This document shows, in pieces, positions 6,904 through 60,845 of a stretch of DNA of 64,000 nt. Made by a program: the position numbers and the translations under genes. The stretch lies in contig CM039005.1 in the NCBI GenBank assembly GCA_017499595.2, forward strand, positions 2,480,001 through 2,544,000, in the 5' to 3' direction. How positions within the stretch are numbered: the stretch's first letter is position 1; each line of letters opens with the position of its first letter. This DNA is from Psilocybe cubensis. Its lineage: Eukaryota. Under the pieces are notes generated by a model. It made no database searches and was not told where the DNA came from. It worked only from the letters and a program-made list of their open reading frames with translations.

Positions 6904-6964
6904 CCCCATTGCTTAACTCAAAGATCAAAGCAATATATTGTGAACTTGTGTTTCTACTGTCAAC

Positions 6965-9044
6965 ATGACCTCTGTTACTACCACCGCTGTGCTCTCGGAC
7001 ACACTTCCGTCGTCTATTCTGAAACTTGATGCGACTGGCGTGAACTGGGCAATCTTTTGTGTCCGTTTCCAGGACGCTGTCAAGGCGAAGGGTCTCTGGG
7101 ACCACTTCAATGGCTTGTTGACATGTCCTGAAGTGTCCGACGTGTCCCCTGCTCCTGTGGTTGCACCTGTGACCGCCCCCAAAAGCGCACCTGCCACCTC
7201 TGCTGCGGTACAAACAACACCAAAGCCTACTGCCAAGGACCTTGCTACACAGCAGAAGTGGGACAAGGACGAGTTGTTGGCAAAATATCTGCTCACGCAG
7301 AAGATTCCCGACTCTACGTTGATGCACATTCACTCAAAAAGCACCGTCCGCAAGTGCTGGGAGGCCATTGTGGCCGAGTACACGGGGAAAGGTGCATATG
7401 CACAAACGGATCTTTGTATCCATTTTCTCGAATCGAAGTGCCTGGACAAGGGCAATGTTTGCGAGTTCCTAGACAACCTGCAAGTGAAACGAGAAGAGTT
7501 AGCATTTGTGGGTGTTGACATTGATGAAAAAGATTACCGTTCTGTTATCATTTCATCTCTTCCTATCAACCTTTCCAATTTTGCGTCAAATCAACTTGCT
7601 TTGGCCCGTTTGTTTGCCCCAACAAAGACTCTGTCTCCTGACGTCCTTATTTTTCTCATCTCCGAGGAATTCGAGTATCAGAAGATGCAGCGCAGCCAAC
7701 GCACGGTAAAGTTGAAGAACAATAACAAGGACAAGGCCTTGTCCATGGGTGTTGCGTTGTTGAAAGGCAAACCGGCCAGGAAATTGACTTTGAAACGCAA
7801 CTCAAAGCCACGCAGCGCCTGTTATAACTGCAGCAAAAAGGGGCATTTCAAGCAAAACTGCCCGAAGCCGCTGAAAGGCAAGAAGTTGAATGACAACTCG
7901 GCAGGCAACAAGAAGGCCGGCGACGTACACGCCGTGCTCAAAACAGAGTCTGACAGCGACGGTGTGCATGCTGTGTTCACGGCAACTGTTTTGGAGGCAG
8001 ACTCTCTGCCGGATCTCCAGTCTGTGTCAAAGACGGATTTGGAGAATGAGGGGGAGGCGGATGATGAAGGCAAGGCCGCGCTGAAGGACGGCAACCAGTT
8101 CTCGGAGGTGGGAAGTGATGCGGGTGACTTTGATGACCCCGCATGGGACTCTGATGAGTTCTTCAAGCTGTCAGATGACGTTGAGGAGGATGCACACACT
8201 GTGATTGATGAGATCAGTGCAACACTTGAGTCAACAGCTGCAAATCATGCACCTTGTGTGGAGATCTACGACTCTGGGTCCACTCGTCACATCTCGCCGT
8301 ACCGTGAGGACTTTGATACCCTCACGGAAACCTCTCCTCTATCCCTATGTGCTGCCAATAAGGGTGAATTCTGTGCTATGGGGGTTGGATCAATGACTAT
8401 TAATGTCCCCAGCGGGGTAGATGTCAACAAACTGACACTTACCAAGGTCCTGTATTCACCTGAGGTCGGGTATACCCTCATTTCCATCAGACGGCTCAAC
8501 CAGAATGGCTTTTCAGCCACGTTCGGCAATGGCAAATGCACCATTACCGGCCCCGAGGGCGAGCGCGTGGGCAGCATCCCCATCAACTCAAAGGGGATGT
8601 ATCATGTGGCACATGAAGCTGACACTGCTAATGCTGTGGTCAAGCAGATCATGCTCGACCAGTTCCACTGTCAAATGGGCCATATCACGCCCGAAATGGC
8701 GAAGTGCCTTGTCAAAAAGGACTTTGTGACTGGTGTTCGTCTTGCCACAGCCTCAAATAACGAGGCCTTCTTTTGCAAATCGTGCATCTATGCAAAAGTG
8801 ACGCGGCGGCCAGTGGCAAAGGAGCAAGGTGGTGAGCAAGCGGCGGCGTTTGGTGACGAGATCCATTTGGATCTGTGGGGACCTGCACCGGTAAAAACGA
8901 AGGGTGGTAAGCGCTACTACGTCACGTTTACAGATGACGCTACGTGACTCACCCGATTGTACCTGCTCCGTCTCAAATCCGACACCTTTGAGGCCTATTG
9001 CGAGTACGAGGCATGGCGCAAAACACAGTTTGGTATTCGCATCA
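6965..9044 (+). pseudogene. Copia gag-protease-integrase (N-terminal part), in-frame stop at 8945-8947, truncated at 9044
   Basis: Zn knuckle CYNCSKKGHFKQNC, protease IYDSGSTRH, HHCC region HCQMGH...CKSC, integrase DLWGP...YYVTFTDD. Confidence 0.9.
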
Positions 9045-12000
9045 GACTGGTGTGTGCCACTTATATCCTACAGTGTGGTGAGTGCCTACATGGCAATGTG
9101 CATTTTCACCACGTTTTAATGATATGAAATCATGGATTATTGCTGTAAGTTATAGCTAAATGGTATATCTTTCAATACTGTAACACAGCTAAGTAATTGC
9201 AAATCATTAAAAGGCTTGTAATCTACAGTAATTTGTCAATAAGATATCATAAAGTTGCTTGTAAGCTACCACATTCTGGAATCAGATCATTAAGATCATT
9301 GTAAATTACAGAAGAGTAGTAAATATTATATGATATCATTACTTGTAAGCTACCATACCCTGAAGCAAAATCATTAGGGTCACTTTAGTCTATAGAAATG
9401 CAATAAATGCTAGATCATATCATTCCTTGTAGGTTACCACATGATGGAATGAGATTATTCATTCCTTTCTGATTAGATATAAGCATGTATCTTATCTGTG
9501 CTTGGTCATTTGTGATATGATGCCATCAATTCAGGAACCCTGGCTAAGTCTGGATCCTGCCATCAGCTCTATCAAAACTATTATTAAATAGACATTCTGA
9601 TCTCGGCCCCTGGGTCTATAATAATGCTCATCCTATGCTACTTTTGTGCATTGCTGGCAATGCATTGGGCGCTTTTGGGGGCATTTCTGGACCATTTCTC
9701 TTGGTGTTTTTTGGTAGACCTATAATTTTAAGGTGTACCAATTCGAATCTGAAATCAGAATTGCAATATCTTTACTCATTATTGTGCAATTAAGCGTACG
9801 AGGTTTTGGTCAAAAGGCGCACCTTGAATAGCACCCTCCAGGGGTTGGTATGCACCCTTCTGACTATGTCATTATTTTTTATTTATATTAGATAGAGTAC
9901 TTGCCAAGTTTCAGCTTAATTGGAGCAGTGGAATCTATTGAACTAGAATGTGCACCCTACCTCTCCTCCTACCCCTTGTATAAATGCCTTTCTGATTAGA
10001 TAAATTTAGGCCCAACTGGGGCTGGGTAGGCGCCCATTATACCAATTTTTAGAGCCCAAAATATTGGTGTAACTTCAAGATTTAAGGGTACTACCCCCCA
10101 CTCCCTCCAGAACTTGTGTATTTTATTATGGCATAGAATGGCTATTCCCAGCACATATAGATATGTAAATCTGCTCCATATAGTACCACAGACATAATAC
10201 ATATCTTTGAAACATTCAGGATGAAGGGGAACACCTTGGTTATGAGGCTAATAAGAAGGTAAAAGGCCAAAGAGGTGACCACAAGCAAAGCATAAATAAA
10301 GGCCAATATCCTTCCGGGTCTCTAATGGGTTCTTCAACACCTTTCTTTCCATATCTCAACAATCACTGGTCCGATGCACAACATCCTTGATGTTCTGAAA
10401 AGCTACATTTTGGGGCTATACTAACCTGCTTTTATATTTCCTGATCTTGAATGTTTATATATGGTAAATGCAAAAATACTATGCATTTTGATGAAGAATA
10501 GTATTCTCTCTGCAGTGTCTCATCTAATGAATGGGTCTTTTTAGAAACTGAGAATGATATTTAGGAGGCACCTATAGATATCTGTAGACGTCAAGAACAT
10601 GATTTATGACAAAGTATTTGTAGAGATATGGCCTGATCAATAACCTACCATACCTCTCCTCATACCCCCCCTTTAATCAGTATGTTATCTTGTTGAAGAG
10701 GGCTTTCAAGGGTAAATTTTGGACTCTATGTATTGTTAGTAGTAGATATACATGTTTTTCAATGGTTTGAGAGCCCATCCTATCCCATAATAAAATACAC
10801 AAGTTCTGGAGGGAGATGAGGGTAGTACCCTTAAATCTTGGAATTTAATCAAGATTATGGGCTCTAAAAATTTTTAAAATGAGCGCCTACTCAGCCCTAG
10901 CTGGGCCCAAATATATCAGATCAGGAAGACATTTATACAAGGGGTAGGAGGAGGAGTAGGGTACACATTCCAGTTCAATAGGTTCCACTGCTCCAATTAA
11001 GCTGAACCTTGGCAGGCACTCTGCCTAACATAAATAAAAATAATGGCATAGTCAAAAGGGTGCATACCAACCCCTGGAGGGTGATATTCAAGGTGCGCTT
11101 TTTGACCAAAACATTGTATGCTTAATTGTACAATAATGAGTAAAGATATTGCAATTCTAATTTCAGATTCGGATTGGGACATTTTAAAACTATAGGTCTA
11201 CTAAAAAAAACCAAGAGAAACAGTCCAGAAATGCCCCCAAAAGCGCCCAATCTATTGCCAGCAATGCACAAAAGTAGCATAGGATGAGTGTTATTTATAG
11301 AGCCAGCAGCTAAGAGAAGAGGCAGGAACAGGGCCCTGATGTAATGGCTGTCAGCCCTAATTCTAATATATTTAGTCCGAGTTCCACGGCTTGCGCTCGT
11401 TCATATTTGCCAGAAAAATATCTATCAGTAATTATGTTTCCTGTTCATTTTTGACATATTTGCCTGGAATATAGACTTTGGGGTTGCCTAATCAGGGAAC
11501 CCCAAAGTCTATATACCTCAAAAATATGTTGAAAATGAACAGGAAACATAACTACCGATAGATATTTTGCTGGCAAATATGTATGAGCACCAGCAGTGTT
11601 CCTGGGCCAAAAATAGTGCTAGATTCTTGCCTAATTATAGATAAGATTAATTACACCAGTTAAATGAAATAAATTTATAATAAAAGTGCACCACAATGAA
11701 ATCAATTAATACTAATGAAAGCACCATAATGAAATCAATTTTTAATGAAAGCGCACAGAAATGAATTCAATTAACACTAATGAAAGCACACCACAATGAA
11801 ATAAATAAATTCTAATGAAAGCGCACCACAATGAAATGAGTTAGTGATTTAATAAAATGAAATAAGCTCTACTAGCAATGAAACAGATGAGGTTAAGAAA
11901 CCGCCAGGTGTGTGTAATGAAATGAAACAGTACTACTGCAGGCACTCTATTGAAATAGTAAGGTAACTTAATGAAATGGTTTCAAAGATGTAAGGTAAGA

Positions 12001-19554: not shown

Positions 19555-20158
19555 GATGTGTTCCGTGTCAAAAACACAGAGGAAACTGGTGTTCCATGTC
19601 AAGGATGTTCTGTATCAAGAAAACCCTGTCAAAAACGCGGTGGAAAGTGTTATTCCGTGTCAGATGCATTCATGGTGGAACCTGGATGTTCCATGTCAAA
19701 AACACGGAGGAAAATGGTGTTCCATGTCAAAAACGCGGAGCAGGGGGTGTTCCGTGTCAAAACTTAGTGGAAACTAGTGTTCCATGTCAAGTATGTTCTG
19801 TATCAAGAAAACCCTGTCAAAAACACGGTGGAAAGTGTTATTCCGTGTCAGATGCATTCATGGTGGAACCTAGATGTTCCATGTCAAAAACACGGAGGAA
19901 AATGGTGTTCCGTGTCAAAAACGCGGAGCAGGGGGTGTTCCATGTCAAGAACTTAGTGGAAACTAGTGTTCCATGTCAAGTATGTTCTATGTCAAAAAAA
20001 CCCTGTCAAAAACGCGGTGGAAAGTGTTATTCCGTGTCAGATGCATTCATGGTGGAACCTGGATGTTCCATGTCAAAAACACGGAGGAAAATGGTGTTCC
20101 GTGTCAAAAACGCGGAGCAGGGGGTGTTCCGTGTCAAGAACTTAGTGGAAACTGGTGT
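19555..20158 (+). repeat. ~189-bp tandem units built from ~27-30-bp subunits (gttccRtgtcaaaaac), left TIR
   Basis: Unit starts near 19582, 19770 and 19959. Confidence 0.9.
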
Positions 20159-22049: not shown

Positions 22050-22945
22050 TCCCCCATGGATGCACTTGACATGGAACATCCTTGAAATAGAACATCTCTT
22101 TCCACCAAGTTGTTAAGATGGAATATCTCCTTCCACCATGTTTTTGACACGGAACACCTGTGCTTTGCGTTTTTGACATGCAACACCTGTGCTCCGTGTT
22201 TTTGACATGGAATACCACTTTCCTCCGTGTTTTTGATATGGAACATCCTGGTTCTACCATGGATGCATCTAACATAGAATAACACTTTCCACCACGTTTT
22301 TGATATGGTTTTTTTGACATAAAACTTACTTGACATGGAACACTAGTTTCCACTAAGTTCTTGACACAGAACACCCCCTGCTCCGCGTTTTTGACACGGA
22401 ACACCATTTTCCTCCGTGTTTTTGACATGGAACATCCTGGTTCTACCATGAATGCATCTGATACGGAATAACACTTTCCACCGCGTTTTTGACAGGGTTT
22501 TTTTGACATAGAACATACTTGACATGGAACACTAGTTTCCACTAAGTTCTTGACACGGAACACCCCCTGCTCCGCGTTTTTGACACGGAACACCATTTTC
22601 CTCCGTGTTTTTGACATGGAACATCCAGGTTCCACCATGAATGCATCTGACACGGAATAACACTTTCCACCGCGTTTTTGACAGGGTTTTCTTGATACAG
22701 AACATCCTTGACATGGAACACCAGTTTCCTCCGTGTTTTTGACACGGAATACATCTTTCCTCCGTGTTTTTGACACGGAACACATTTTTCCGCCGTGTTT
22801 TTGACATGGAACATCTAGGTTCCACCATGAATGCATCTGACACAGAATAACACTTTCCACCGCGTTTTTGACAGGGTTTTCTTGATACAGAACATCCTTG
22901 ACATGGAACACCAGTTTCCTCCGTGTTTTTGACACAGAACACATC
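22050..22945 (-). repeat. Same ~189-bp array, inverted, right TIR (more units than the left)
   Basis: Repeated gtttttgacaYggaac; reverse complement of 19555-20158. Confidence 0.9.
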
Positions 22946-25900
22946 TTTCCGCCGAAGTATAATCAAGCTGTCAATATTTAGTCTCTCACTGAGTAACAAA
23001 ACATTATAAACATTGAATATACATATGTAAGATATTGGTATTATGCATCAAAGTCATTGGTCTTTCATGCATTCAAAAATAATCAAAAACACGGAACAGT
23101 ATTTGTCCGTGTTGCCAGGCTCACGGAATGTTCTTTTTCCGTGTTGCCAGGCTCACGGAATGTTTTTTTTCTGAGCTAGATAGGTGGCAGGGCCATTTAG
23201 GCTAAATGGCCCGTGTTCCACGCTATGATTTTCTAGTCTAAATGACACGTACATCATGTCAATCTCCTAGATTGCTAGTAAGCAAAAATAGACCGTGTTT
23301 CACGCAATCTCCTAGATATTAAATCTTAGGTAATGTACGTTAAAAATAAACTGTCTTATGTGACCATACCCTAGAGCAAAATCATTAGGGCTACTGTAGT
23401 CCACAGAAATGTAATAAATATTAGATTATATCATTCCTTGTAGATTACCATATGCTGGAATTAAATCATTAAGATCATTGTAAATTACAGAAGAGTAGTA
23501 AATATTATATGATATCATTGCTTGTAAGCTACCATACCCTGAAGCAAAATCATTAGGGTCACTTTAGTCTATAGATATGCAATAAATGCTAGATCATATC
23601 ATTCCTTGTAGGTTACCACATGATGGAATGAGATTATTCATTCCTTTCTGATTAGATATAAGCATGTATCTTATCTGTGCTTGGTCATTTGTGATATGAT
23701 GCCATCAATTCAGGAACCCTGGCTAAGTCTGGATCCTGCCATCAGCTCTATCAAAACTATTATTAAATAGACATTCTGATCTCGGCCCCTGGGTCTATAA
23801 TAATGCTCATCCTATGCTACTTTTGTGCATTGCTGGCAATGCATTGGGCGCTTTTGGGGGCATTTCTGGACCGTTTCCCTTGGTGTTTTTTGGTAGACCT
23901 ATAGTTTTAAGGTGTACCAATTCGAATCTGAAATCAGAATTGCAATATCTTTACTCATTATTGTGCAATTAAGCGTACGAGGTTTTGGTCAAAAGACGCA
24001 CCTTGAATAGCACCCTCCAGGGATTGGTATGCACCCTTCTGACTATGTCATTATTTTTTATTTATATTAGATAGAGTACATGCCAAGCTTCAGCTTAATT
24101 GGAGCAGTGGAATCTATTGAACTAGAATGTGCACCCTACCTCTCCTCCTACCCCTTGTATAAATGTTTTCCTGATCTGATACATTTGGGCCCAGCTAGGG
24201 CTGAGTAGGCGCTTATTTTAAAAATTTTTAGAGCCCATAATCTTGATTAAATTCCAAGATTTAAGGGTACTACCCCCATCTCCCTCCAGAACTTGTGTAT
24301 TTTATTATGGGATAGGATGGGCTCTCAAACCATTGAAAAACATGTATATCTACTACTAACAGTACATAGAGTCCAAAATTTACCCTTGAAAGCCCTCTTC
24401 AACAAGGAAACATACTGATTAAAGGGGAGGTATGAGGAGAGGTATGGTAGGTTATTGATCAGGCCATATCTCTACAAATACTTTGTCATAAATCATGTTC
24501 TTGACGTCTACAGATACCTATAGGTGCCTCCTAAATATCATTCTCAGTTTCTAAAAAGACCCATCCATTAGATGAGATACTGCAGAGAGAATACCATTCT
24601 TCATCAAAATGCACAGTATTTTTGCATTTACCATATATAAACATTCAAGATCAGGAAATATAAAAGCAGGATAGTATAGCCCCAAAATGCAGCTTTCTAG
24701 AACATCAAGGATGTTGTGCATCGGACCAGTGATTGTTGAGATATGGAAAGAAAGGTGTTGAAGAACCCATTAGAGACCCGGAAGGATATTGGCCTTTATT
24801 TATGCTTTGCTTGTGGTCACCTCTTTGGCCTTTTACCTTCTTATTAGCCTCATAACCAAGGTGTTCCCCTTCATCCTGAATGTTTCAAAGATATGTATTA
24901 TGTTTGTGGTACTATATAGAGCAGATTTACATATCTATATGTGCTGGGAATAGTCATTCTATCCCATAATAAAATACACAAGTTCTAGAGGGAGTGGGGG
25001 GTAGTACCCTTAAATCTTGAAGTTATACCAATATTTTGGGCTCTAAAAATTGGTATAATGGGCGCCTACCCTGCCCCAGTTGGGCCTAAATTTATCTAAT
25101 CAGAAAGGCATTTATACAAGGGGTAGGAGGAGAGATAGGGTGCACATTCTAGTTCAATAGATTCCACTGCTCCAATTAAGCTGAAACTTGGCAAGTACTC
25201 TATCTAATATAAATAAAAAATAATGACATAGTCAGAAGGGTGCATACCAACCCCTGGAGGGTGCTATTCAAGGTACGCCTTTTGACCAAAACCTCGTACG
25301 CTTAATTGCACAATAATGAGTAAAGATATTGCAATTCTGATTTCAGATTCGAATTGGTACACCTTAAAATTATAGGTCTACCAAAAAACACCAAGAGAAA
25401 TGGTCCAGAAATGCCCCCAAAAGCGCCCAATGCATTGCCAGCAATGCACAAAAGTAGCATAGGATGAGCATTATTATAGACCCAGGGGCCGAGATCAGAA
25501 TGTCTATTTAATAATAGTTTTGATAGAGCTGATGGCAGGATCCAGACTTAGCCAGGGTTCCTGAATTGATGGCATCATATCACAAATGACCAAGCACAGA
25601 TAAGATACATGCTTATATCTAATCAGAAAGGAATGAATAATCTCATTCCATCATGTGGTAACCTACAAGGAATGATATGATCTAGCATTTATTGCATTTC
25701 TATAGACTAAAGTGACCCTAATGATTTTGCTTTAGGGTATGGTAGCTTACAAGTAATGATATCATATAATATTTACTACTCTTCTGTAATTTACAATGAT
25801 CTTAATGATTTAATTCCAGCATATGGTAACCTACAAGAAATGATATAATCTAATATTTATTACATTTCTATGGACTACAGTAGCCCTAATGATTTTGCTC

Positions 25901-28400: not shown

Positions 28401-30117
28401 CCAGTTTGGAGGTGATTCTTGCATTGGACATTGCCGTCAATTGGTATTTTTATACATTATAGCTATTGTTTTTGTAAAAAAAGTTGAGTCTACGGATGCA
28501 GCTAGATTTATTACAGAATAGTGTATAAAGTGAAGTCACAGAGAATCATGCTGAGCTACCACAGTTTGTCTCACCTATTTGTGCTCCCTCGGACGACAGC
28601 GTCGAGCTTGAGCACAAAGATGGACGATAGCATTCAGTTTACCTTCTCTGGTTTCAGACTCAGGGGACACTTCAATGAACGACAGCATCCACTATGAGAA
28701 AATCAGTACCAGACAATAGCGTCCAGACAGAGCCCCCACTCAGATGACAGCGTCTGATGTGAGGGTACCAGAGAAAACTACCGCACGTCCCAGCGCACTG
28801 TTGTGCGTGGAAGGGCACGTCTCTGCACTTCCGTGCACACCCATTAGACACAATCTGAAGGCTAATTTTAGTATTGCACAATCAGTTGGGCTTCATATGT
28901 CAAACATAGACTTCCATTTTTAACGTCTATTCCAAAAGTTGTTCACAACTGATTCCAAACCCGACCGGGCCTCAATTCTCAGCTTAACTTCAACTATTCA
29001 TCAATTAACTGTAGCTATGCCCAAATTCCACCCAATTGGAACCCTCATTTTCACCGCGCACACGCCCACACACGTCCCTCCAGCCACTCGCGCACTTCCC
29101 TCAGCCACTTGTGCGTGTCTGGACTCCGCACACATCCAAACACTTGCACGTCCCATCACTGTGCGTCCCTTGCTTCCCTTGCTTCCCCTGCACGGTAAAA
29201 AACCTGTGTCCCCACAGTAGGGGAGGAAGAATCCAAAGCTTCCCCAATTTGGGTAAGACTGTATTCTTGGAAATAATGTTCTTGCAAATTGGGGTGGGGA
29301 ATAGCAGATGATGAAAAGGTGTTGCTGTTAGCACTTGTTGCATGACTATATTGAGACCACGGAGCAGCTAACGCCTCCCAATGTGGATCCATTAGATCAG
29401 GTTTGACCGCAACAAATGGGTTGGTGGAGAAAGCAGGTGGAAGTGGATGAGGCGCAAGAGTGACAGTTGTGTCTGAAAGGGGAACTGGTGGGTTACAGCC
29501 AGGGGCAACCACTTGAGATAATTCATAGGGAGATAATGCAAAAGAGTCGTGGAAGGATAAAGAGGGCGGGTGATGGCCAAAAAATCCACTCTGGTCAGAT
29601 AATTCTTGGGAGAATAACGCCGCGGGGTTGCGGAAGGAATTGAAACAAAAAAAATTCAGAAGCTCTGTCAATTTAAAAAGAATTGATCTTTCCTCTTGAT
29701 GAATGGCAGCTATTTCTTTTGCGACAAAGTCAATACATCTATTTGTTCCTTTAGCATCTAGCAAATATGCAGCCAACACAGCCCGCACCTTAACGCCTCT
29801 TCCCCAGTGAAAGGCTCTCTCTTGGGTCTTGTATAATGACAGGTAATTTCCTTGTCTCCATAACTCATGCAGAGAACCTTTTTAGCACCATCACACCATA
29901 TTTTTTTGGCGGCGGCATTAGTCCTACACAAGCAGTTCCAATAACAATAGGCAGACAAATGTTGATATTGAACTTACGCATGCTCCTAGAAACAAAAAAT
30001 ATTCAACTTGACATATTAGAGACAAGGTTATAGGCAAGCTCACTAGAAACTCGAGTGGGTTTCATAAAATTCTCTTTCTTTCTTCTTGTCGTGGGTGCAA
30101 GTCAAGCTATGGATTAG

Positions 30118-31686
30118 TGTCAGGGTACGTATTGGTGCTACCCCTATCCGTTATTGTTATCTGTTACGGTCCCACACTGTCATGCCTTGTTCTATCTTTG
30201 TGTTTGGTCCCACGTCTATTGTTCTCCTGTTTCATCTATTGATAGTTGTCATATGTTGAGTACTCTGGTCCGGGAAGTAGTTACTCCGGTCTCCATGTAT
30301 ATATAGGGTCCTGGGGTCAGTAGTCAGACCCCAGCTTTGATATCAACTTGGTCTTTGGGCACTCTTCTCTCTTGACTTAAGTTGATTCCTAACAGCATAT
30401 CGAAGCTACCCAACGTTGCCCTGGTACTCTATCCACTGCAGCGCTCGTCTACTCTACTCTACCTTGCCTCCATCTATTATACACCATGGCCGACCCTCCT
30501 TTGCCTTACGATGGGTTTATGACGATGTCCCTTGAGGACCGTTTTGCCCTCCTCTTTAAGGTGCAGCAAGTCCGGTTTGATGCCAATAAAAAGGTTGATG
30601 ACCAACTGTCTGCCATCGAGTCTAAACTCGAACGCCTTACGGCCTCTCTACCCAAACCGCCTGCCACTCCCACTCCCTCTACTCGTGCACCTTGCACTCA
30701 ACGCACCTCTAGGAGCACCTACCTCTACCCCTACTACAGGGCCCCCGCACTCCCAATCCATCTGCTCTACTACTACCAAAGCCGCCCTCGAGAAGATTGT
30801 CGCTACCCTGTCTATTGTGGACAAACAGGCTGGCCACGTCATAGGGCGTGCGGGAACTGGCTTATGCCAAATCCACAACATCTTGCATGCAAAGATCTCG
30901 GTCTCCCCTGTTGTCACCTCTGGTTTGCGTGCCGTCACTATCAGGGGCACCACTCGTGAAGTCGGTGATGCTCTCTCTGCTATTGGCAAGCGGATTGCCC
31001 GTCATTGCATCCGCAACCCTAGGTCCAAGAAGCCTAAACAGCCTCCTGCTCCCACTGCCGCCCCTCCTACCCTCGTCGTTGAACCTCCTTCTCCTACTCC
31101 AACCTCAAGCTCTACCCCAACTACGCGGACATCCTGTTCCGGGACGGCTTCTCCGCATTTGCCCACTCCTACGGCTGTTGACACTTGCTCCAGCCCATCC
31201 TTGTCGCTTGCCCCTGGTTCGCCTATGGAGGTGGACGCTCTCAGGGCTCTGCTACAATACTCTGACGGTTACTCTCGCCCCGGGCCTGTTCAGCCTAGGG
31301 AGGGAATTCAGACCGCACGTCGTGGCGGTGGACCGCCTTGTGTCTTTGGTGCAAACCGTCCACGGTGAAGACCAGGTCGTTGGGACACCGACCTTTAGAG
31401 GGGAGGTGATGTCAGGGTACGTATTGGTGCCACCCCTATCTGTTATTGTTATCTGTTACGGTCCCACGCTGTCATGCCTTGTTCTATCTTTGTGTTCGGT
31501 CCCACGTCTATTGTTCTTCTGTTTCATCTATTGATAGTTGTCATATGTCGAGTACTCTGGTCCGGGAAGTAGTTACTCTGGTCTCCATGTATATATAGGG
31601 TCCTGGGGTCAGTAGTCAGACCCCAGCTTCGATATCAACTTGGTCTTTGGGCACTCTTCTCTCTTGACTTAAGTCAATTCCTAACA
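30118..31686 (+). mobile_element. Non-autonomous mini LTR retroelement (TRIM-like) with 277-bp LTRs, 5-bp TSD ATTAG, self-priming primer-binding site (PBS) and a KH-domain ORF
   Basis: LTRs 30118-30394 and 31410-31686 (TG...CA); ATTAG at 30113-30117 and 31687-31691; PBS 30397-30407; PPT ttagaggggaggtga 31395-31409. Confidence 0.95.
30486..31368 (+). pseudogene. Helical/coiled-coil N-terminus, type I KH domain, Pro/Ser/Thr-rich tail; one frameshift near 30700-30720
   Basis: ATLSIVDKQAGHVIGRAGTGLCQIHNILHAKISVSP...RAVTIRGTTREVGDALSAI fits the KH pattern with a GxxG loop; the N-terminal part lies in a different frame (ORF 30486). Confidence 0.8.
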
Positions 31687-32959
31687 ATTAGTGGGAGCAG
31701 TGTACAATAGGAACACAAAGCAAAAAAAAAAGGTTCTTATGTCAAACTAAACTATTCACTTCTCTTTCTCCCAAAGGCACGAGGCATCTTCAACGGTCAA
31801 ATGATAGTTACCACTGCTATTATTTAATGAAGAGTCTCCATGCTGGGTTTCATGAGTGTTCTTACCAGATAAAGTCTATTTGGTTCAAGTCCAGGTACCA
31901 ATTAAAGGATTGTTGGCCACTAGTAGTGTTTTAACATTCTCGATCCTAGCTAGATATTCGTCAAGTTTGGCAGGATATAAACAGACAATTAAGGACCTCT
32001 ATCATTTACGTCATGCGTGTGCAGCATAGAATCAGACTTGGTAGGAAAGAATTCACCAGGACTGTGGTAAATAACAACTAAACTACAGGTCATTGCCATT
32101 CTTGGCAACTGGTTCTTGATGATAAGGCGGAAATGCATTCCTTCCCATTCCAGAGCTGCGCAAGACAAGAGCTGCTTTTGGGGCTCAATGACTCTCAATA
32201 ACCCTTGTTCAATGATGTTGTTATAGGCTGACATTGATTGAGATAGACATCTACAGAGAGGTTGTAGTAAATCAGGGATATGCCGGTGAGCTGGATAAGG
32301 ATTGGCTTGTTCCACTATTGCTTTCAGTTAGCACCATGGCCCTAACTGGGCCCTGTTTTACAGATCAGGGTCACAAACAAACCATGAGCTTGTTTTAATA
32401 TGGCCAGCCCATGGACCCACAGCCCTTCCTACAAGAGTTGGGACTTTTTATCCTTCAACCTGTTTGGAAGTTTGCTTTGGTCTTGTATCAAAACTTTAGT
32501 CTCGGCCATTCTCGCAGATATGAGGCCAAAAATTGGGCATTTCGTCCCTTTCTCGTGGATTTGAGGGTGCCACAGGCCGACCATTGTCCGGATCTGGCGG
32601 ATTTGAGGCCAAAATTGTGGATTATTGGGATTTTTCCAGGGTCAAAGAATATTTATACATTCTAAATTCAGTTTAAATGGAGAGAAGAAGATAAAAACCA
32701 TCAAATACGCCCAAAATGTTTCTTGAATCTTCCAATACAATCCGACAACCCAACGCAGGTAATAACGGATACAGCATGTCGTGGCCCAAAGAACCCTACA
32801 TTGACGTACTTTTTTCAGATCATATCCCCTTTATAAACTGACCTCAGGTTTTAATAAGCAGGCCACCCCTCACCGTTGATTATGTTCTATACTTGGGAGA
32901 GAGTAGATGACCTTACTTTTTTTGGTAAAAAGAGCACATTTTCTGCTTTGTTGTGCTTC

Positions 32960-42469: not shown

Positions 42470-43087
42470 TATTATCAAATTATTAAATAATTAACTTAAT
42501 AAAAAGGTAAGGGACTGGGTGAACTTTTGCTTGCCTGCAATAATTCTTGTCGGTCCCTTGGGTAACTTCTATTGATTGGGCTTTTACTATTTCTTCAAGA
42601 GATTTGTTGGAAGTATCAGCTTCAGATGCCTTGATCAAATCTTGTCAGAGCAACACTATAATCAGTGTGACAAGGCCACCAACAAAGATCAAGCAAGAGA
42701 GAGAGAGAGAGCGCAGAGGGAGAGTAAGAGAGCAGAGAGAGAATAAGAGAGTGAGAGAGACTCAATGATTCTAAGAGATCACACCAATGATAGTGGATAT
42801 CCTAAGAGATTGAAGCTGAAGCTACAGCTACCTACAAGTCCAGTATTTATACTCTACAGCTATTCTAGAATATTCTCTACATTACATCATAAAGGAAGGT
42901 TAAAGAATAAAAGTGACATTATATAGAAAAAGGATGAGTAAGACTAGGAATCATATAGAATTTACTAGAAAGAAGTGGAGCAAGAAGGCTGTGATGAAAG
43001 AAATAAACTATCTAATCAGATAATTGATAAGGAAAGGATAAGATAATTCTGTGAAAATAAAGAGGGGAAACTGGAGAAACCCTGACA

Positions 43088-46000
43088 TCACCCCCTTTCT
43101 AAGGCACATTTTCCACAATGTGCACATGGATGGGTTAGCTTAGAGGGTTTAAGAAGAGGAGGAGGTTCAGTAAAGTTAATAATAGGAGTGAAAGAAAGTC
43201 TATCAAAGGTCACAGCAGAAATCCTTCTAGGTGCTGAAGGATGTTTGGCATGGAAGTCCTTGATAGCCTTAGAAGCATTTTTCAAATGCTCTGCAGGCTC
43301 TCAAGTGCATTCTTCATTAGGATAGTTCTTCCACTTGACCAAATATTGAAGTTTGTTTCTAAAAAGTCTGCTGTCCTTGATAAATTCAACTTCCCACTCA
43401 GGATTTTCTCCTTGAATGACAGGAGGTGGTCTAGAAGGAGGCTTTCTTCCTACAATATCTGGGTGATAAGGTAGAAGTTTAACCACATTGAACACTGGAT
43501 GGATTTTCATAGTAGATGGCAGCTTAAGCTCATAGGCATTAGAGCTAATAACTTTGGTAATTTTGTAAGGCCCATATCTTTTATCATCCAATTTCTTGGA
43601 GGGTCTATCAGTTTTGAGATCCTTGCCATCCAACCATACCAAATCCCAACTTTGTACTGAGTTGGAATACCTCTGTGTCTATTATAGAATTTAGCCATAT
43701 CATCAGCAGCTTTTCTAAGTGCAGACTCTGCTTCTTTCCTGGCTTATTTTTCACAAAGGTATCCACAGTGTCCATTTTACTATCTCTAAGGGGTTCAGTG
43801 CTCATTCTGGGATGTCTGCCATTATTGAGCATGAATGGTGTCTGCCTGATTGAAGCCTGAACTCTATTGTTATAAGAGAATTCAGCTAGAGCTAACCATT
43901 CAACCCAATCATCTTGCCTATGGTTTATAAAGAGTCTAAGATACTGCTCAATTTCTTGGTTAATTCTTTCAGTCTGACCATCAGTTTGGGGATGGTAGGC
44001 TGTAGATGAGGCTGTCTGGATACCAAGTATTGAATTGAGTTCTTTCATAAACCTTGAGACAAACTGTGGACCTCTATCACACAGAATTTTAATGGGTAAG
44101 CCATGGTGTTTCCAGACATAATCTCTGTATAGTCTGGCTGTCCCTTCAGAAGTGACTTCATCTGTAGTAGGGATAATGTGGATCATTTTACTAAGTCTAT
44201 CCACAACCACCATAATGGCATTATACCCTTGACATTCTGGTAACCCCATAATAAAGTCCACAGAGATGCATTGCCAGACATCAGAGGGAATCTCAGTAGG
44301 AATTAAAAGGCCAAGAGGTTTGGCTGGAAAGGTTTTGGTTCTGTTGCATCTATCACAACCTCTGGTATAGGCTGCAATAAAATGTGACATTCCTGGCCAC
44401 CAATAATTCCTAGAGACTAGCTCAATTGTCTTCCATTTCCCTGGATGTCCAGCAATGAAAGCATCATGGTGCAGTTCCACAATTTTTCTTCTAAGATCTT
44501 TGTTTTTAGGAACATACACCTTCCCCCTGTAGAGAATAAGGCCTTGTTCTTCTGACCATTCCTGTCCTTCAATCTTCTTGGTAGAAGATTTCTTAAGCTC
44601 CTGAACTGCCTTGACCATCTTTTCATCCATCTTCTTAGCTTCTCTAATCTTCTTAAGAAGATCATTTTCTGCACCAGTAATAGTAGCATGACCCTGCTTG
44701 AGAGCCTGGATTTTAAAGTAGGAAGGTTTGAGGAGAACTACATTTTGGTTATTATTCTCTCCCTTTTTATGATCTGGTCTCCTAGACAAAGCATCTGGCT
44801 TAAGAGATCTTTTACCAGGCCTATGATGAAGAGTAAAATCAAATCTGGACAGGAAGAGTGACCATCTGGCTTGCCTTCTGCTGAGCTTTTGGGCAACCAT
44901 AAAGTACTCTAAGTTTTTGTGGTCTGTCCAAATCTCAAAGGAATGTTGGGTTCCTTCAAGATAATGTCTCCATTCATCTAGTGCTCTGATAATAGCCAGC
45001 ATCTCTTTGTCATGGATCTCATAATTCCTTTCTACTTCAGATAGACTCTTAGACATAAAGGCTACAGGATACCATTTCCCATCTGATCCTTCCTGAGATA
45101 AAACAGCCCCAGTAGCATAATCTGAACTGTCTGCTTCAACTTTATATGGCTTGTTATCATCAGGGAAAATCAAGACAGGTGAAAAAGTGACTTTCTTCTT
45201 TAACTGGTCAAAGGCTTCCTGCTGTCTAAGACTCCATCTCCAGACTATTCCTTTCTTTGTCAATTCATGAAGGGGCTTAGCAATGTCTGCAAAATCCTCT
45301 ATGAACCTTCTATAAAAATTAACAAATCCCAAGAATGATTGGACATCCTTGACATTTTCAGGTTCAGGCCATTTAGAAACTCCCTCTACCTTGACAGGAT
45401 CCATCTCAATCCTGCCTTGTGAAATGATTAGTCCAAGATATTCAATCTTTTCCTTTTCAAATTCACATTTCTCTGCTTTAAGGTAGAGTTTGTTCTGTTC
45501 TAAGATTTGCAGAACTTGCTTGACTACCTCTCTATGATGATCAAGAGTCTCAGTGAAAATTAAAATGTCATCCATGTAGACAATGACAACATTTCCATCA
45601 ATGAGCTCAATAAAGATATCATTCATCATAGTTTGGAAGGTAGCAGGACTATTGGTTAAACCAAAGAACATGACCAATGGTTCAAACAGCCCTCTATTGG
45701 TTCTAAAGGCTGCTTTCCATTCATCTCCCTTTTTGATTCTGATATTGTTAAATCCCCACCTAACATCAAGTTTGGTAAAGTATTTGGCTTTGCTGAGTTT
45801 GGTGATAATGTCAGAAATCAATGGAAGGGGGTAGGAGTTCTTGATGGTCATTTCATTCAGTTTTCTATAGTCCTGGACAAGCCTAAGAGATCCATCCTTC
45901 TTCTTGACAAAGAATACAGGGGAGGCCATAGGTGACTTGGAGGGTCTAATCCTGCCAGACTTCAGATTTTCCTCTAAAAAGGCATCAAGTTCCTTTTGTT

Positions 46001-46949
46001 CATTGGGAAAGAGAGGATAAATCTTGGATCTATAAGGTTCAAAACCAGGTTTCAGCTCAATAGCATGATCCCAAGGCTTCCTGTCTGGTAGCCTATCAAA
46101 AGATTCCTTTGAAAAAACACCTTTAAACTGGTAATAGTGCTTAGGGACAGTTTCTTCAAAGGTTTTCTTAGGAGAATCAGCTTGCTGATGAGACTCTTCT
46201 GCTAATCTTTGAGACATAGTAGAAGTAGCATTAATAGACTGCTTCTGAGGATGAAGGTATGAGATGAAAATTCTGTCCTCAGGCTCAATCTCAGAATCAG
46301 AAGAATCTTCAATAGAATCATCTTCTTCTTTATCAAATTGAGGGAGTTTCCTCCTTTTGACTGCAGCTATTCTCTGCCTCTTTCTTCTGGCTCTTTTGGC
46401 TTCCATTTAGCAGTCAGAGGGACATCTAATAAACTGAACATCCCCTGTCTTCCAATCAACATCTGGATTATGGTGCCAAAGCCAAGTATGTCCAATGATA
46501 GCAGATTTGTCTCCCAAGTCACAAATAGCAAAGGTGGCCCTTTCTGTATGGTTCTTGTGTACCATAATTAAGTCTACTTCCTCATGGATAGAGCCACTCT
46601 TGTTGAGAGTACCATCAACATTATAGACTGGAATGGCTCTAGGAAGTTTCCTTGTGTTGAGATTATGATACTTCACAAAACCAGAATGCAGAAAGAGGCC
46701 AGTAGCTCCAGAATCAAGCAAAGCATCAACAGATAACCTTTTCTCTGTGTCCATTGTCTTTAAGATGACAGACAAATGGGTAGAGGTTTTAGGATTATGG
46801 TTGAGGATGTAGATCTTTTCAGGGAAGGTAGAAAGAGAGGAAGAAGAAGACATGATTTCTGCACCAGAATCTGAAGACTGAGGATCAAGTCTGTCAATTT
46901 CATTTTTTAGTACATTAAATTTATTCCATTGGGACATGTCTTTCACCAA
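43088..46949 (-). pseudogene. Gypsy Pol (PR-RT-RNaseH-IN-chromodomain); stop at 46407-46409 and 3' frameshifts
   Basis: ALLDSGAT, VYMDDILI, EADSSDYA, ISVDFI...CDRGPQF...GQTERINQ, RYGPYKI, WEVEFIKDSR...QYLVKWKNY. Confidence 0.93.
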
Positions 46950-46957
46950 TGGTGCTT

Positions 46958-48067
46958 CTAAAAATTTTTCTTTTCCTCATCTTTCTGCTCCTTGCCTTCC
47001 AAGATTAATTTCCCAAAATAGTCAGCCAGTTCTTCATGGGTCATAGCATTGATGTTAACTGATGACCTGCAGTTTACAGCCTTATGACCAGGCTTTGTGC
47101 ACTTGAAGCAAATAATTGGCTTGACTGACTTCCATCCAGAGTCAACCTCCATGGGAACTACATCTGGTTGCTTTGCCTGAGCACCAAAAGTCCTTGAGCT
47201 GCTGTTGGAAAAGACTGGAGGATTTGGAGTAGGCTTAGGAACAGCCTTGGGAGTTGGGGCTTTAAGAAAGGGAGAAGAGGAGAAGGAGGAAAGAGACTTG
47301 GTAAAGGCCTCACTCTGCCTCCACTGCCTATCTAGCCTAGTACTCCATTTAATCCATCCATCCAAGGTTTTGGGCATGTCAGGAACATAGTAGACTGCAT
47401 TCCTGAGATTTTCATTAAGCCCAGCCTTGAATTGGTCTACCAAAGCAGCATCATTATACCCAGTATCTGAGATCAGAGCCCTGAAGCTAGCAATATACTC
47501 ATCAGCAGTCTGCCTGCCTTGCTTGAGCATGTGCATTTTATGCTTAGCTGTGTTGGAGGGGTCTGGATCTGCAAACACTTCCCTAAATTCATAAACAAAG
47601 TCAGCCCAAAGACCTTCTTGGGACTGAGCATTGTCTATTACTTTAGTCTTCTCATATGCCCACTTCCCAGCAGTACCTCCTTTCATATGAGATAGAGCAC
47701 AAATAATTTTCTGAAAGTTATCTGTAATCCCTTTCCCATAGAAATATAATTTGAGCTGACTGAGGAAGTTTTCTGCCTTCTCCATAGAACCATCAAATGG
47801 ATCTGGAGGTGAGACTTTAATGACAGAGTGTGAACAGGAAGGGGCAACATGAGGGGCAGGGAAAGAGTGAATATCTAGAGCAGCAGGTGGTGGTGGTGGT
47901 GGTGATGATGGTGACTGACTGACTGGTTGCTGAGGGTGTGGTGGAGTGGATGATGACTGCTGCTGCTGTCTAAGAAAATTCAACTCTTGGGTAAGGAGCT
48001 GGACCTGATGCATGAGCTCTTCCACAGAAGAAGAGGTGGGAGGCAATTGGGAGGGGTCCATGTCCAT
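46958..48067 (-). CDS. Gypsy Gag (retrotransposon gag domain plus CCHC knuckle)
   Basis: PDPFDG...FLSQLKLYF, LKQGRQTADEY, FKAGLN, VVPMEVD, CFKCTKPGHKAVNC. Confidence 0.92.
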   Translation of the reverse strand: MDMDPSQLPPTSSSVEELMHQVQLLTQELNFLRQQQQSSSTPPHPQQPVSQSPSSPPPPPPAALDIHSFPAPHVAPSCSHSVIKVSPPDPFDGSMEKAENFLSQLKLYFYGKGITDNFQKIICALSHMKGGTAGKWAYEKTKVIDNAQSQEGLWADFVYEFREVFADPDPSNTAKHKMHMLKQGRQTADEYIASFRALISDTGYNDAALVDQFKAGLNENLRNAVYYVPDMPKTLDGWIKWSTRLDRQWRQSEAFTKSLSSFSSSPFLKAPTPKAVPKPTPNPPVFSNSSSRTFGAQAKQPDVVPMEVDSGWKSVKPIICFKCTKPGHKAVNCRSSVNINAMTHEELADYFGKLILEGKEQKDEEKKNF

Positions 48068-50997
48068 GGGTAGGGGTAGGTAGGCTCTCTGATGTGTGTG
48101 TGGGAGAAGCTATCTACTGAAAGTGCCCTTGAAACTATACTAAGTACTCTAAAAAAATATCTATCTACTGGATACCCAGTTGTCACACCACTCAGGGCTC
48201 TAAACCTAGGATCACAGGGTTACTGGATATTTCCTAGACCACCAAAAACAGAACACTAGTAGGACTGTGTCTGCCCCAACAGTTGGTATCCCTATCTACT
48301 AAGTTCACACACAGCACACAACAGAGAGTAGGAAAGATGGTGAGCCAAAGGTCTTGAGGAAAAGGTCTTGAGGAAGATGTTGAAGGTTGGTGGAGAGGTA
48401 GAGGTTGCTAAAGAGATTGGTGAAAGGGTTGGTGAAGAGGTTGGTAGAGATGAAGAGTTTGGTGTTGAAAGAGAGATGGTGGAGTTGTCTTGAGAGAGCT
48501 TCAATCTTCTGTCAGGGCAACACTATAATCAGTGTGACAAGGCCACCAACAAAGATCAAGCAAGAGAGAGAGAGAGAGAGAGAGCAGAGAGAGAGTAAGA
48601 GAGCAGAGAAAGAATAAGAGAGTGAGAGAGGCTCAATGATTCTAAGAGATCACACCAATGATAGTGGATATCCTAAGAGATTGAAGCTGAAGCTACAGCT
48701 ACCTACAAGTCCAGTATTTATACTCTACAGCTATTCTAGAATATTCTCTACATTACATCATAAAGGAAGGTTAAAGAATAAAAGTGACATCATATAGAAA
48801 AAGGATGAGTAAGACTAGGAATCATATAGAATTTACTAGAAAGAAGTAGAGCAAGAAGGCTATGATGAAAGAAATAAACTATCTAATCAGATAATTGATA
48901 AGATAATGAAAGGATAAGATAATTCTGTGAAGATAAAGAGGGGAAACTGGAGAAACCCTGATACTGCCCCCTGTTTGATTCCCCCACCAGAAAATAAGGA
49001 CCATGAAGACCCTTGTATGTATTTGGAACAAAAAATGCTTTCATTATTTGAGTTAATAGGAATTAGTACTTGGGCTCTGTGGCCCAAGCGTTTGCTACAG
49101 GTACCATGCACCACGCTCTCCTCCCCTCCTTAAATTTCCTCCCAAGTTCATCCAGCAGTAAATGGACTGGGTCTTTGATATATAGGGGTTCTTATAACCA
49201 CATTTGTCTGTATCATGAGGGACATGCTGCATAGTCCAAACGTCAATGGCCGTTGCCATCCAGGTTCCCTCCTAAAGATAGGTTGCGTTATATTTGCATT
49301 TTTGGCATTTTTGGTGGGCTTTCGTTACAATTAATGTAAAATCTTCCACTTGCTGACTGTTCACGTCAGCATTTTATTTCTACAGTTGTCCTTGGTACAG
49401 AGGAAAGAGCAGTCCTGGAGACTCCAGTTTCTACTCTTACTCAGGCCATGCTGATTTGTAAAATCACGCTGTTGGTTAGTTTGGTTTTGGCAGGGGACTG
49501 TTTGATGGTATAGCATTGCATTACTTTATTTCCAAAATGATCTATCTAATGATTTGCTACCTAAAGACGGTTGCTCAAGGCATGTTATTGCGATCCCTGC
49601 CCTCCTTTGGTTTAGAACTGCAGGTGAGTAGGCAGCTTGGTATATCTCAAATTATACACTAACTAGCATCGATATATTGAAAAGGTGGTTGATGTGTGGC
49701 TGTTATGTTAAACAGGAATTCTACTATATTTCAATCCGAAGAATTCAGGCCTTTGACAGCCATTTTTATGTCTTTCACACTGGGATTAAATCTGTCGTGC
49801 GCTTGTAAGCCTCTGACATTCTTTAATACATCAATATATTTTTTAAATATATATGCAGACTTGATTGTTTGCAAGATTTGCCAGGTCGACAACCGTGGGC
49901 CCATTAAAGTAATGTTGGGATAGAAAAATATTGGGCGGTCGGCAGTGATTATAGCTTTGCAATCCACAACAATATACACTGCAGTAGTCAGCAGCTGCAT
50001 GACCGTGTACCTCTTCAGATCTACGGCCTACTATTCTCTGGAGTGTATCGTGAGTTATATGCTTTTAAAGATTCTCAATCACATTCAAACATTCTCTCTA
50101 GATGGTTCCCCTCATTGCATTAATCCACATATATTCTTTATTGAGTTTTTGGCTTTCTATTGTTGGAAATAGTAATGGGGTATTGGATTACATTTCCTCT
50201 CTTAACATAGTTCAGGGCCAAGGAATTGCAGAAATGGATAGGGGAGATAGGGGAGTTGTTCGTTTTGCCATAGGCACGGAGTCTCAAGAGGACGCTAGAT
50301 CAACTGAAATTACAAAAAATGCTATGGAAATGACTACAGTCAGGGGTCTGTCTCAAGCAGATGATTAATCAACAGTAGTGACTGTTGTCAGTTTGTTTTC
50401 CATTTATTAAAAAGCTCTTTTGAATTTTGAATAGCTCTGGACTCCTAACTTGAGAATTTTGCTGGCGTTGCCATCTTGATGAATGTGGCTGAGGTAAGAA
50501 GGCCCAAATGAGGCAGGCAAGCTCGCTTGTTTTCTTTACCTTCTTTCTTCCCTTTTTTTCCTTAAAGCCCTTGCATAGGCATCTGCAAAAGGCTTGACCC
50601 TTTGTAGAGAATAGCCGACTTAGGCAAACATAAGCACAGCACAGGCGCAGTTTGTCTGCTCCAGCAATGGAGGAAGCAGGGGAGGGAGCAACATTGTTGC
50701 AAACTCTGTTGGACTGAAGCACAGCACAGGCGCCTTCCAACATCTCTTTTAGAGAGCCTCTTTAAAAGGTCCTTTTTACCCAACAACATTCTTGATCCCC
50801 TTTTCTCCCCTTTGCCGTACTACATCTGCTTCTCCTTATTCTGCACCGCAAGAGCTTGTTGTTCCCCAGCATGCCTCCAACAAACATTCTGCTTGTTGAG
50901 TCTGCTTTCTCGACGACAATGGCGTGGGACAATATCAAGCTGAACAGGGGTGTGTTGCAGCATAGATGGAATCCCCTTCACTATAATTTGTTCACTT

Positions 50998-60524: not shown

Positions 60525-60845
60525 ACTGGCATCAAATGAGAAATATGGCTGACATTCTATAAAAAATGTGGGTGGCATGGAATGAGAAATTTGGTTGACA
60601 TCCAATGAGAAATACGGCTGGCATCCAATAAGAAATACGGCTGGCATTGAATGAGAAAAGTGGGTGGCATGGAATGAGAAATTTGGCTGATATTTAATGA
60701 GAAATTTGGCTGACATTCTGTGAAAAATTTGGTTGGCATCCAATGATAAATTCGGCTGATATTCAATGAAAAATATGGCTGGCATCCAATAAAAAATAGG
60801 GCTGGCATTGAATAAAAAATGGGGCTGGCATTGAATGAAAAGTGT
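60525..60845. repeat. ~21-bp tandem array (ggctggcattcaatgagaaat)
   Basis: Consecutive degenerate copies seen directly. Confidence 0.85.

Follow-up and report, generated by a model that had tools for sequence, protein, structure and literature searches.

The DNA considered here is a stretch of 64,000 nt of Psilocybe cubensis contig CM039005.1 (assembly GCA_017499595.2, positions 2,480,001 to 2,544,000 of the forward strand), referred to below as the window. At window positions 30118 to 31686 there is a miniature long terminal repeat (LTR) element, whose only gene is an open reading frame (ORF) encoding a protein with a KH domain. The element is a decaying member of a family found in several mushroom-forming fungi, and we propose that this family is a protein-coding, non-autonomous satellite of self-priming Ty3/gypsy retrotransposons. 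The features of the window copy, including its primer-binding site (PBS), are the following.

30113 to 30117, no strand: ATTAG target-site duplication, 5' copy, identified from the sequence and from the joint between 30112 and 31687 in the reads of a second strain (run X14, see below).
30118 to 30394, plus strand: 5' LTR, 277 nt, TGTCAGGG...CCTAACA, 96.4% identical to the 3' LTR.
30298 to 30305, plus strand: TATATATA box in the LTR, the presumed promoter; a TATA-like box is equally placed in aligned loci.
30333 to 30343, plus strand: self-primer arm AGCTTTGATAT, the presumed start of the R region and of the transcript, complementary to the PBS and with a C>T change at 30338 relative to the 3' LTR.
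30397 to 30407, plus strand: PBS ATATCGAAGCT, 2 nt past the LTR, complementary to the LTR arm.
30486 to 30714, plus strand: N-terminal part of the ORF (ATG at 30486), comprising a long helix and a Pro-rich linker, up to the deletion.
30714 to 30715, plus strand: site of a 14-nt deletion, the cause of a frameshift and private to the window copy, as judged from X14 reads.
30715 to 31368, plus strand: C-terminal remainder of the ORF, read in the +1 frame, with a basic stretch, the KH domain, a second basic stretch and a tail rich in Pro, Ser and Thr (stop at 31366 to 31368).
30808 to 30984, plus strand: type I KH domain whose GxxG loop is GRAG, identified by Pfam KH_1, a structural model and Foldseek.
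31219 to 31239, plus strand: conserved tail motif SPMEVDA, found by a motif scan in the KH family and in gypsy Gag homologues.
31397 to 31409, plus strand: polypurine tract AGAGGGGAGGTGA abutting the 3' LTR, identified from the sequence, with similar tracts in relatives and in the gypsy element.
31410 to 31686, plus strand: 3' LTR, 277 nt, with an intact arm AGCTTCGATAT at 31625 to 31635 (LTR positions 216 to 226).
31687 to 31691, no strand: ATTAG target-site duplication, 3' copy.

The two LTRs are identical at 267 of 277 positions and have TG...CA ends (TGTCAG...AACA). The interior between them is 1015 nt long and contains one long frame, split into two pieces. When the ORFs of the window were searched with Pfam, the only match in this interior was to KH_1 (24.3 bits against a cutoff of 21.5, E 2.6e-5, in the frame 30580 to 31368), and no reverse transcriptase (RT), integrase or capsid was found there. 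A first-pass annotation, made from the letters alone, had described a unit of 1569 bp with 277-bp LTRs, an ATTAG duplication and a polypurine tract, and an interior with a KH ORF alone. The sequence and the empty-site reads described next bear out the first of these descriptions, and Pfam the second. There is no second copy of the element within the 64-kb window.

Direct evidence for mobility comes from raw DNA reads from a second strain labelled as the same species (run X14), which were mapped on window positions 29618 to 32186. On the flanks the depth is about 30-fold, and the reads carry fixed differences from the window sequence. Seventeen reads join position 30112 directly to 31687. The 1574 nt missing from these reads correspond to the 1569-nt element together with one copy of the 5-nt duplication, and the site is therefore unoccupied in the second strain. 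In the interior the depth is about 330–480, compared to about 30 on the flanks, so that with copies counted by depth at a likeness of at least 85% the element is present in roughly 11–16 copies in this strain. The depth over the LTRs exceeds even that of the interior, which suggests that solo LTRs are present, and reads clipped at the LTR ends carry many differing flanks (consensus agreement 0.36–0.54). Contigs of a further run, X1, match the flanks without any difference and break at the element. From two runs presumed to be RNA (X16 and X17) nothing mapped to the region, which has no bearing on expression. The first-pass annotation had named a single copy, with a neutrally decaying host KH fragment, as one outcome that would speak against a retroelement family. 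The depth in X14, the varied clipped flanks, at least seven P. cubensis gene models and 45 metagenome loci (both described below) all indicate many copies. The insertion polymorphism between strains suggests activity recent enough for the element to be used as a marker.

The window copy itself is dead and decaying. An extra 14 nt is present behind position 30714 in 83 of 197 X14 reads, and a further 75 are clipped there. An intact P. cubensis relative of 298 residues, P0001, reads ...TSRKERPAAPTSTP... across the same point. Because of the 14-nt deletion, the N-terminal frame (starting at the ATG at 30486) and the KH frame are out of register, a cause that the first-pass annotation had not recognised. 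All 10 differences between the LTRs are transitions, eight of them at CpG, and 189 of the 196 differences seen in X14 relative to the window are also transitions. With few exceptions, the mutations private to the window copy and the changes that separate its two LTRs are C>T or G>A, and the majority fall at CpG; the observed/expected ratio of CpG is 0.66 in the element and 0.44 across the whole window. This pattern fits a decay of the repeat driven by cytosine methylation. Since the transitions concentrate at CpG, the LTR divergence of 3.6% probably overstates the age of the insertion.

Relatives of the KH protein were sought in several ways. A word-index protein search gave 41, many of them from contigs of only 1–2.8 kb. 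At least seven are P. cubensis gene models, located on different contigs, and others come from three more Agaricales, Agrocybe pediades, Psilocybe cf. subviscida and Dendrothele bispora. In an exhaustive protein search, 150 clusters (formed at 50% identity) matched at E ≤ 1e-3, and 56 of them reached E ≤ 1e-10. The family-type matches are nearly all single-KH proteins of 100–410 residues; weaker matches with at least three matched stretches come from ordinary multi-KH proteins. Sphaerobolus stellatus (Geastrales) and Termitomyces sp. were added by a profile search. The mini element thus belongs to an Agaricomycete family with members in Psilocybe, Agrocybe, Dendrothele, Termitomyces and Sphaerobolus. 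A protein atlas yielded only sub-threshold Basidiomycota KH clusters (scores 0.84 and 0.79), to be taken as a lead.

The relatives are also LTR elements where their surroundings can be seen. A scan of metagenome contigs gave 45 loci with relatives, and in 10 of these the KH ORF lies between diverged direct repeats, 68–374 nt long and 83–99% identical. The LTRs of relatives begin with TGTAAGGGG, TGTAACGGG or TGTCATGGG, and purine tracts precede the 3' LTRs of loci L009, L017, L024, L033, L037 and L043. The clearest case is L017, where positions 1142 to 2998 form a related mini element with 363-nt LTRs (97% identical) and the duplication ACAAC. This insertion interrupts a gypsy gag, of which residues 97–217 lie upstream and residues 223–344 downstream; other metagenome loci also adjoin transposon genes. 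Eight contigs (L001, L002, L003, L005, L007, L019, L032 and L038) have overlapping ends, which imply units of 1.25–1.6 kb, or approximately one LTR plus one interior. Overall, elements of the family are about 1.5–1.9 kb long and the ORF fills about 85–90% of the interior.

No RT, integrase or capsid fusion was found in the family members tested, either in the protein search matches or by Pfam in six relatives. One P. cubensis model, P0003, has a KH tail fused to a fragment of a Tf2-type integrase SH3 domain (19.5 bits, below the cutoff), which is probably a nested insertion. Three proteins from contigs of 3–6.5 kb (P0083, P0101 and P0113) are much longer, at 759–781 residues, and match only KH_1 in Pfam. 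In these long forms the C-terminal block (…SDAES…) is conserved, and there is an extra 400-residue extension rich in Ser, Thr and Pro.

The ORF is under purifying selection, as estimated from sequence comparisons within the family. The ratio of nonsynonymous to synonymous substitution rates (dN/dS, Nei-Gojobori) is 0.18–0.57 in all 24 pairs, drawn from five subgroups with dS between 0.09 and 0.96, and the one-sided Fisher P values range from 0.013 down to 7e-26. The neutral decay that the first-pass annotation had allowed for is therefore not what is seen. A complete ATG-to-stop ORF of 249–362 residues with the KH core motif, applied strictly, is present in 20 of the 45 metagenome loci; the strict scan gave no ORF in 16 loci, where it may be broken or simply variant. 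LTR/PBS type and protein subgroup go together, and the unit is therefore inherited as a whole.

The priming site of the family is of an unusual kind. The PBS of the window copy, ATATCGAAGCT, is the exact reverse complement of AGCTTCGATAT in the 3' LTR (11 of 11 nt). The arm of the 5' LTR pairs with it at 10 of 11 nt plus one G-U pair, the result of a single C>T change, and begins 35 nt past the start of the TATATATA box (30298). The first-pass annotation was correct in placing a PBS next to the 5' LTR, but had not seen that the site is self-complementary and not of the tRNA type. A tRNA-type PBS was considered and dropped, there being no TGG after the 5' LTR and the self-complement accounting for the site. 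ARAGORN found no tRNA genes in the window, which has no bearing on the PBS.

The arrangement recurs across the family. A script was used to find perfect complements of at least 10 nt between a PBS located 0–4 nt after ...ACA and a partner segment 20–220 nt upstream. Duplexes were counted by this script, since indels in the arm made alignment columns unsuitable for counting pairs. A perfect arm-PBS pair was found in 31 of the 45 metagenome loci, with the PBS 0–3 nt (mostly 2) after the LTR end ...ACA. This count leaves out a single hit in L011, which is AT-rich and of low complexity, and takes the arm from the 3' LTR in L015 and L042, where the contig cuts the 5' LTR. In the aligned loci the arm is preceded by a TATA-like box and a CCCC run. 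Among the loci there are about 18 distinct duplex sequences, for example ACCTTGATAT, AGCTTTGAAAT, AACTCGATTAT, ACTCTGTTAT and AGTCTTGAATT. Because so many different duplexes are still perfect, changes in the arm and in the PBS must compensate each other. The shuffled-locus control gave 0.023 hits per locus. Ten of the 14 loci lacking a perfect pair comprise one with a single mismatch and nine with less than 470 nt upstream of the KH match, too little for the arm to be included; the other four are taken up below. Minimum-energy folds pair the arm with the PBS in 10 of 10 leaders (z from -2.1 to -4.8); for the leader of the window copy, z is -3.5.

The KH protein has been further analysed using the intact relative P0001, which matches KH_1 with 35.7 bits (cutoff 21.5). 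An AlphaFold2 model was calculated from an alignment of 61 sequences (mean pLDDT 68.7, pTM 0.38). It predicts a long helix at residues 16–53 (pLDDT 90–95), a disordered basic linker, a KH domain at residues 97–177 (pLDDT above 90) and a disordered tail. The KH domain is predicted to have the fold β-α-α-β-β-α, with strands at 109–116, 141–144 and 152–159 and helices at 117–124, 126–138 and 161–177. The GRAG sequence of the GxxG loop is invariant or nearly so among aligned members. Foldseek and a profile search of solved structures matched KH domains alone, the closest being hnRNP K KH3 and PCBP1/2 (TM score on the target 0.83–0.90, root-mean-square deviation 1.2–2.0, E about 1e-8 to 1e-6). The type I KH domain with an intact GxxG loop, the N-terminal helix and the tail rich in Pro, Ser and Thr, all of which had been proposed from the sequence of the window copy, are thus recovered in this analysis. 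Outside the KH domain, the conserved segments are RRxSRK...APTSTPTT before it, GKRIARRRIRNPR after it, SPMxVDA in the tail and QTARRG near the end.

There is no sign of a conventional Gag. Neither Ty3_capsid nor Retrotrans_gag gave a Pfam match in six relatives, including three of about 770 residues, and the CCHC pattern C..C....H....C is absent from the family consensus and from 15 aligned members. A two-copy prediction of residues 1–60 gave a score of 0.02, which speaks neither for nor against oligomerisation. KH domains of the PCBP and hnRNP K type, to which that of the family comes closest among solved structures, bind poly(C). The sense strands of the family ORFs average 36% C (n=24), compared to 21% for gag-pol of the gypsy element in the window, which is the following.

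42643 to 48963, minus strand: full-length self-priming Ty3/gypsy element with open frames for gag with a CCHC knuckle, protease and RT-RNase H-integrase; candidate helper type.

This gypsy element has LTRs of about 455 nt that are 95% identical, and its Gag contains a Ty3_capsid domain and a CCHC knuckle. Its PBS, AGATTGAAGCT, is separated by 2 nt from the preceding ...CCCTGACA, and the segment to which this PBS is complementary, AGCTTCAATCT, is located about 30 nt past TATAAATA. At the junction of polypurine tract and 3' LTR it reads AGGGGGTGA followed by TGTCAGGGT, near-identical to the mini element, which reads GGGGAGGTGA followed by TGTCAGGGT. The LTR ends, polypurine tract and mode of priming of the mini element thus match those of the gypsy element, and there is no pol or capsid fusion, all of which supports the satellite status suggested by the first-pass annotation. 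Just upstream of the gypsy 5' LTR, the sequence AGGGGGCAG also resembles a polypurine tract, a hint that the arrangement is tandem or recombined.

A second resemblance is found at the protein level. Of 107 homologues of the gypsy Gag, 98 contain the pattern PM[EDQH][VIL][DGS], typically within VVPMEVDSGW, at a distance of 15 residues on the N-terminal side of the CCHC knuckle. The same PMEVD-type pattern follows the KH domain in 39 of 71 full-length members of the KH family, and it occurs in 0.3–0.5% of shuffled sequences. The motif could be a shared docking site, a protease site or a remnant of Gag ancestry.

On the basis of these observations, we hypothesise that the mini element is a dead copy of a protein-coding, non-autonomous satellite family of self-priming gypsy elements, and that the KH protein functions to deliver the element's own RNA; we put the probability of this reading at roughly 60%. 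Transcription would start about 30 nt past the TATA box of the LTR, and the RNA would pair with the PBS through its first 10–13 nt. As happens in Tf1, Tf2 and Tj1, this arm-PBS duplex would then be cut by RNase H, here that of a helper RT, to yield the primer. The RT, the integrase and the particle would be supplied in trans by a self-priming Ty3/gypsy element of the type at 42643 to 48963. The most speculative step is that the KH protein would bind the element's own C-rich RNA, probably in cis during translation, and then deliver it to or retain it in helper particles, taking over the packaging that Gag, with its zinc knuckle, performs in an autonomous element; a link between the KH protein and the helper may be provided by the Gag-like PMEVD motif. 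Our confidence falls from the start at the arm and the primer cut by RNase H, through reverse transcription and integration by gypsy enzymes, to binding in cis and packaging by the KH protein. The KH domain itself may have been captured.

A fuller version of the hypothesis may also be put forward. An adaptor consisting of a coiled coil and a KH domain would have replaced Gag-Pol, would mark its own C-rich, self-priming RNA in cis, would enter helper particles or be processed in them through the PMEVD motif, and would have persisted among Agaricomycetes from at least the split of Agaricales and Geastrales. This version is tentative, and we would give it somewhat less than even odds. If it is true, the family would parallel, among LTR elements, LINE-1 ORF1p or a satellite virus with no gene but that for its own packaging factor.

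A number of observations weigh against the proposed explanation. Beyond the termini, the polypurine tract and the PBS type, the LTR bodies of the mini element and of the gypsy element are unrelated (best BLAST E 0.74), and the gypsy element of the window therefore represents the type of helper and not the helper itself. The comparison of the KH and Gag families by hhalign gave as its sole match the PMEVD segment, over 16 columns with a probability of 1.3% and E 0.039, so that the proposed link between the KH protein and Gag is a short motif, to be treated as a lead. The high C content may merely follow from a protein rich in Pro, Ser, Thr and Ala. Collapse of identical LTRs during assembly, 1-LTR circles or tandem arrays could each account for the overlapping contig ends. 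Turning to the priming site, the minus-strand control gave 14 hits in seven loci, another 10 came from other places on the plus strands, largely within tandem repeats, and four of the 45 loci have no arm-PBS pair despite enough upstream sequence. The start of transcription, and hence the location of the arm at the 5' end of the RNA, is a prediction made from sequence. Finally, the 25 loci that did not show a complete ORF are cut by contig ends, are broken or fail the strict KH pattern.

Other explanations have to be considered. The family could be a satellite in which the KH protein protects or promotes the element RNA, through stability, nuclear export, translation or a shield against silencing, and has no part in packaging. 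Proteins of the PCBP and hnRNP K type regulate mRNA stability and translation, and a conserved single-KH protein under purifying selection, with no recognisable particle-forming domain, would suit such a role well; contact of the KH protein with helper proteins is, after all, conjecture. The difficulty is that a protector acting in trans would aid competitors and the helper equally, which makes lasting purifying selection harder to explain unless it acts in cis, and that the Gag-like PMEVD motif is left unexplained. We consider this role unlikely, though well worth keeping in mind. A more radical suggestion is that the KH protein is a remodelled gypsy Gag, in which the capsid core was replaced by a KH domain and which co-assembles with helper Gag by means of the helix and the C-terminal motif that it has kept. 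The two proteins are indeed laid out in a similar way: Gag has an N-terminal helix, a Pro-rich segment, a core, a second Pro-rich segment, the PMEVD motif and a basic end that binds nucleic acid, and in the KH protein the KH domain takes the place of the core. The PMEVD segment is the only profile-profile match between the two families, and BLASTP aligns PPSPYDGFM with PPDPFDGSM at the start of the capsid region, a weak match (E 0.12). These statistics (a probability of 1.3% and E 0.12) are poor, the PPSPYDG match is limited to the Psilocybe and Agrocybe branch, and no member tested has a Ty3_capsid or Retrotrans_gag signal, which together make a remodelled Gag distinctly improbable.

The remaining view is that the KH ORF is a neutral passenger, a fragment of a host mRNA or gene located between LTRs. 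The window copy, taken by itself, would encourage this view, being frameshifted and full of CpG transitions, as would the several P. cubensis gene models that are truncated or chimeric. It does not agree with the dN/dS values (0.18–0.57 in every one of the 24 pairs, with dS reaching 0.96), with the 20 loci that have complete ORFs, with the intact 298-residue copy in P. cubensis, or with the observation that LTR/PBS type tracks ORF lineage down to about 35–40% protein identity. Nor did an LTR-free host orthologue stand out, the matches beyond the family being generic multi-KH proteins at about 30% identity. A passenger origin is thus largely refuted, and very little credence is left for it. We accordingly retain the satellite hypothesis, with a KH protein that would deliver its own RNA, as the best explanation.

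The window as a whole is a transposon-rich region. It contains four copies of a repeat of about 1.7–2 kb (4514 to 6537, 9601 to 11314, 23780 to 25494 and 58122 to 60158), pieces of which are 74–98% identical. An ORF at 6944 to 8947 with copia-type gag, zinc knuckle and pre-integrase domains lies between the first two copies, and these repeats may be very long Copia LTRs plus solo copies. An ORF on the minus strand at 61657 to 62913 has a CxC2 cysteine cluster, of a kind associated with KDZ (Kyakuja-Dileera-Zisupton) transposases. Tandem arrays with a period of 23 nt are present at both ends of the window (169 to 467 and 60503 to 60870), and arrays with a period of 189 nt at 19558 to 20137 and 22192 to 22949, the second of which lies within an open frame of 325 residues that has no Pfam match.

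Full-text literature searches found no description of an LTR element encoding a KH protein, in agreement with the first-pass annotation, which knew of none; Repbase, Dfam and GyDB lay outside the scope of these searches. The accessible text of PMC10282164 makes no mention of KH domains. Proteins of the family are at present filed as 'hypothetical' or 'K Homology domain-containing' host genes in the genomes of Agaricomycetes, and should be relabelled as transposon genes. Non-autonomous LTR elements are usually seen either as non-coding hitchhikers (TRIMs, LARDs) or as crippled autonomous copies. The KH family keeps exactly one gene under selection, which is neither gag nor pol, across two mushroom-forming orders. 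It therefore poses the question of what minimal protein a parasite of retroelements needs in order to compete for the helper machinery. A KH domain acting in this competition would, if true, be a new route to RNA recognition for LTR-type elements.

Comparison with known systems helps to place the family. None of the proteins that make a Ty3/gypsy or Ty1/copia element autonomous (capsid-type Gag, protease, RT/RNase H, integrase) was recognised by Pfam in the mini element. TRIMs and SMARTs have two LTRs, a PBS, a polypurine tract and 5-bp duplications, and depend for their movement on autonomous Copia or Gypsy elements acting in trans (PMC10886601). TRIMs are defined as being below 1000 bp and encoding no proteins responsible for mobilization (PMC10886601). 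The mini element resembles them in its order of LTR, PBS, polypurine tract and LTR with 5-bp duplications, and probably in its mobilisation in trans. It differs in its length, 1569 bp (1.5–1.9 kb in the family), and in its conserved ORF under purifying selection, and so falls outside that definition.

Tf1 and Tj1 use the 5' end of their own mRNA as the primer: it folds back to pair with the PBS, which is complementary to a segment of the 5' LTR and not to a tRNA (PMC4600332). The PBS of the mini element likewise complements an LTR segment downstream of the promoter. Tf1, Tf2 and Tj1 are autonomous, encoding Gag, protease, RT and integrase, whereas the KH family has no pol and would have to borrow the RNase H cut. 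Because it has neither RT nor integrase, the mini element cannot be placed within the Tf1/sushi clade. Its relatives, with about 18 compensated primer/PBS duplexes, offer a natural set for the study of Tf1-type self-priming outside fission yeast.

Barley BARE-2 and the LARDs are LTR elements that depend on a partner, and either keep remnants of gag and pol or are non-coding. The KH family would resemble them in depending on a partner for proteins, and we know of no BARE-2 or LARD-type element with a KH protein as its only gene. In sequence and fold, the KH domain is closest to those of PCBP and hnRNP K, and its GxxG loop is intact as in these; they are multi-KH host proteins, whereas the mini element encodes a single KH domain, with 20–33% identity to theirs. 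A parallel in overall design may be LINE-1 ORF1p, which has a coiled-coil helix, a domain that binds single-stranded RNA and a basic or disordered end, and which prefers its own RNA. The two belong to different classes of element, and ORF1p has an RRM where the KH protein has a KH domain, so the likeness is one of analogy. By that analogy, the helix, RNA-binding domain and disordered end of the KH protein may form a comparable design.

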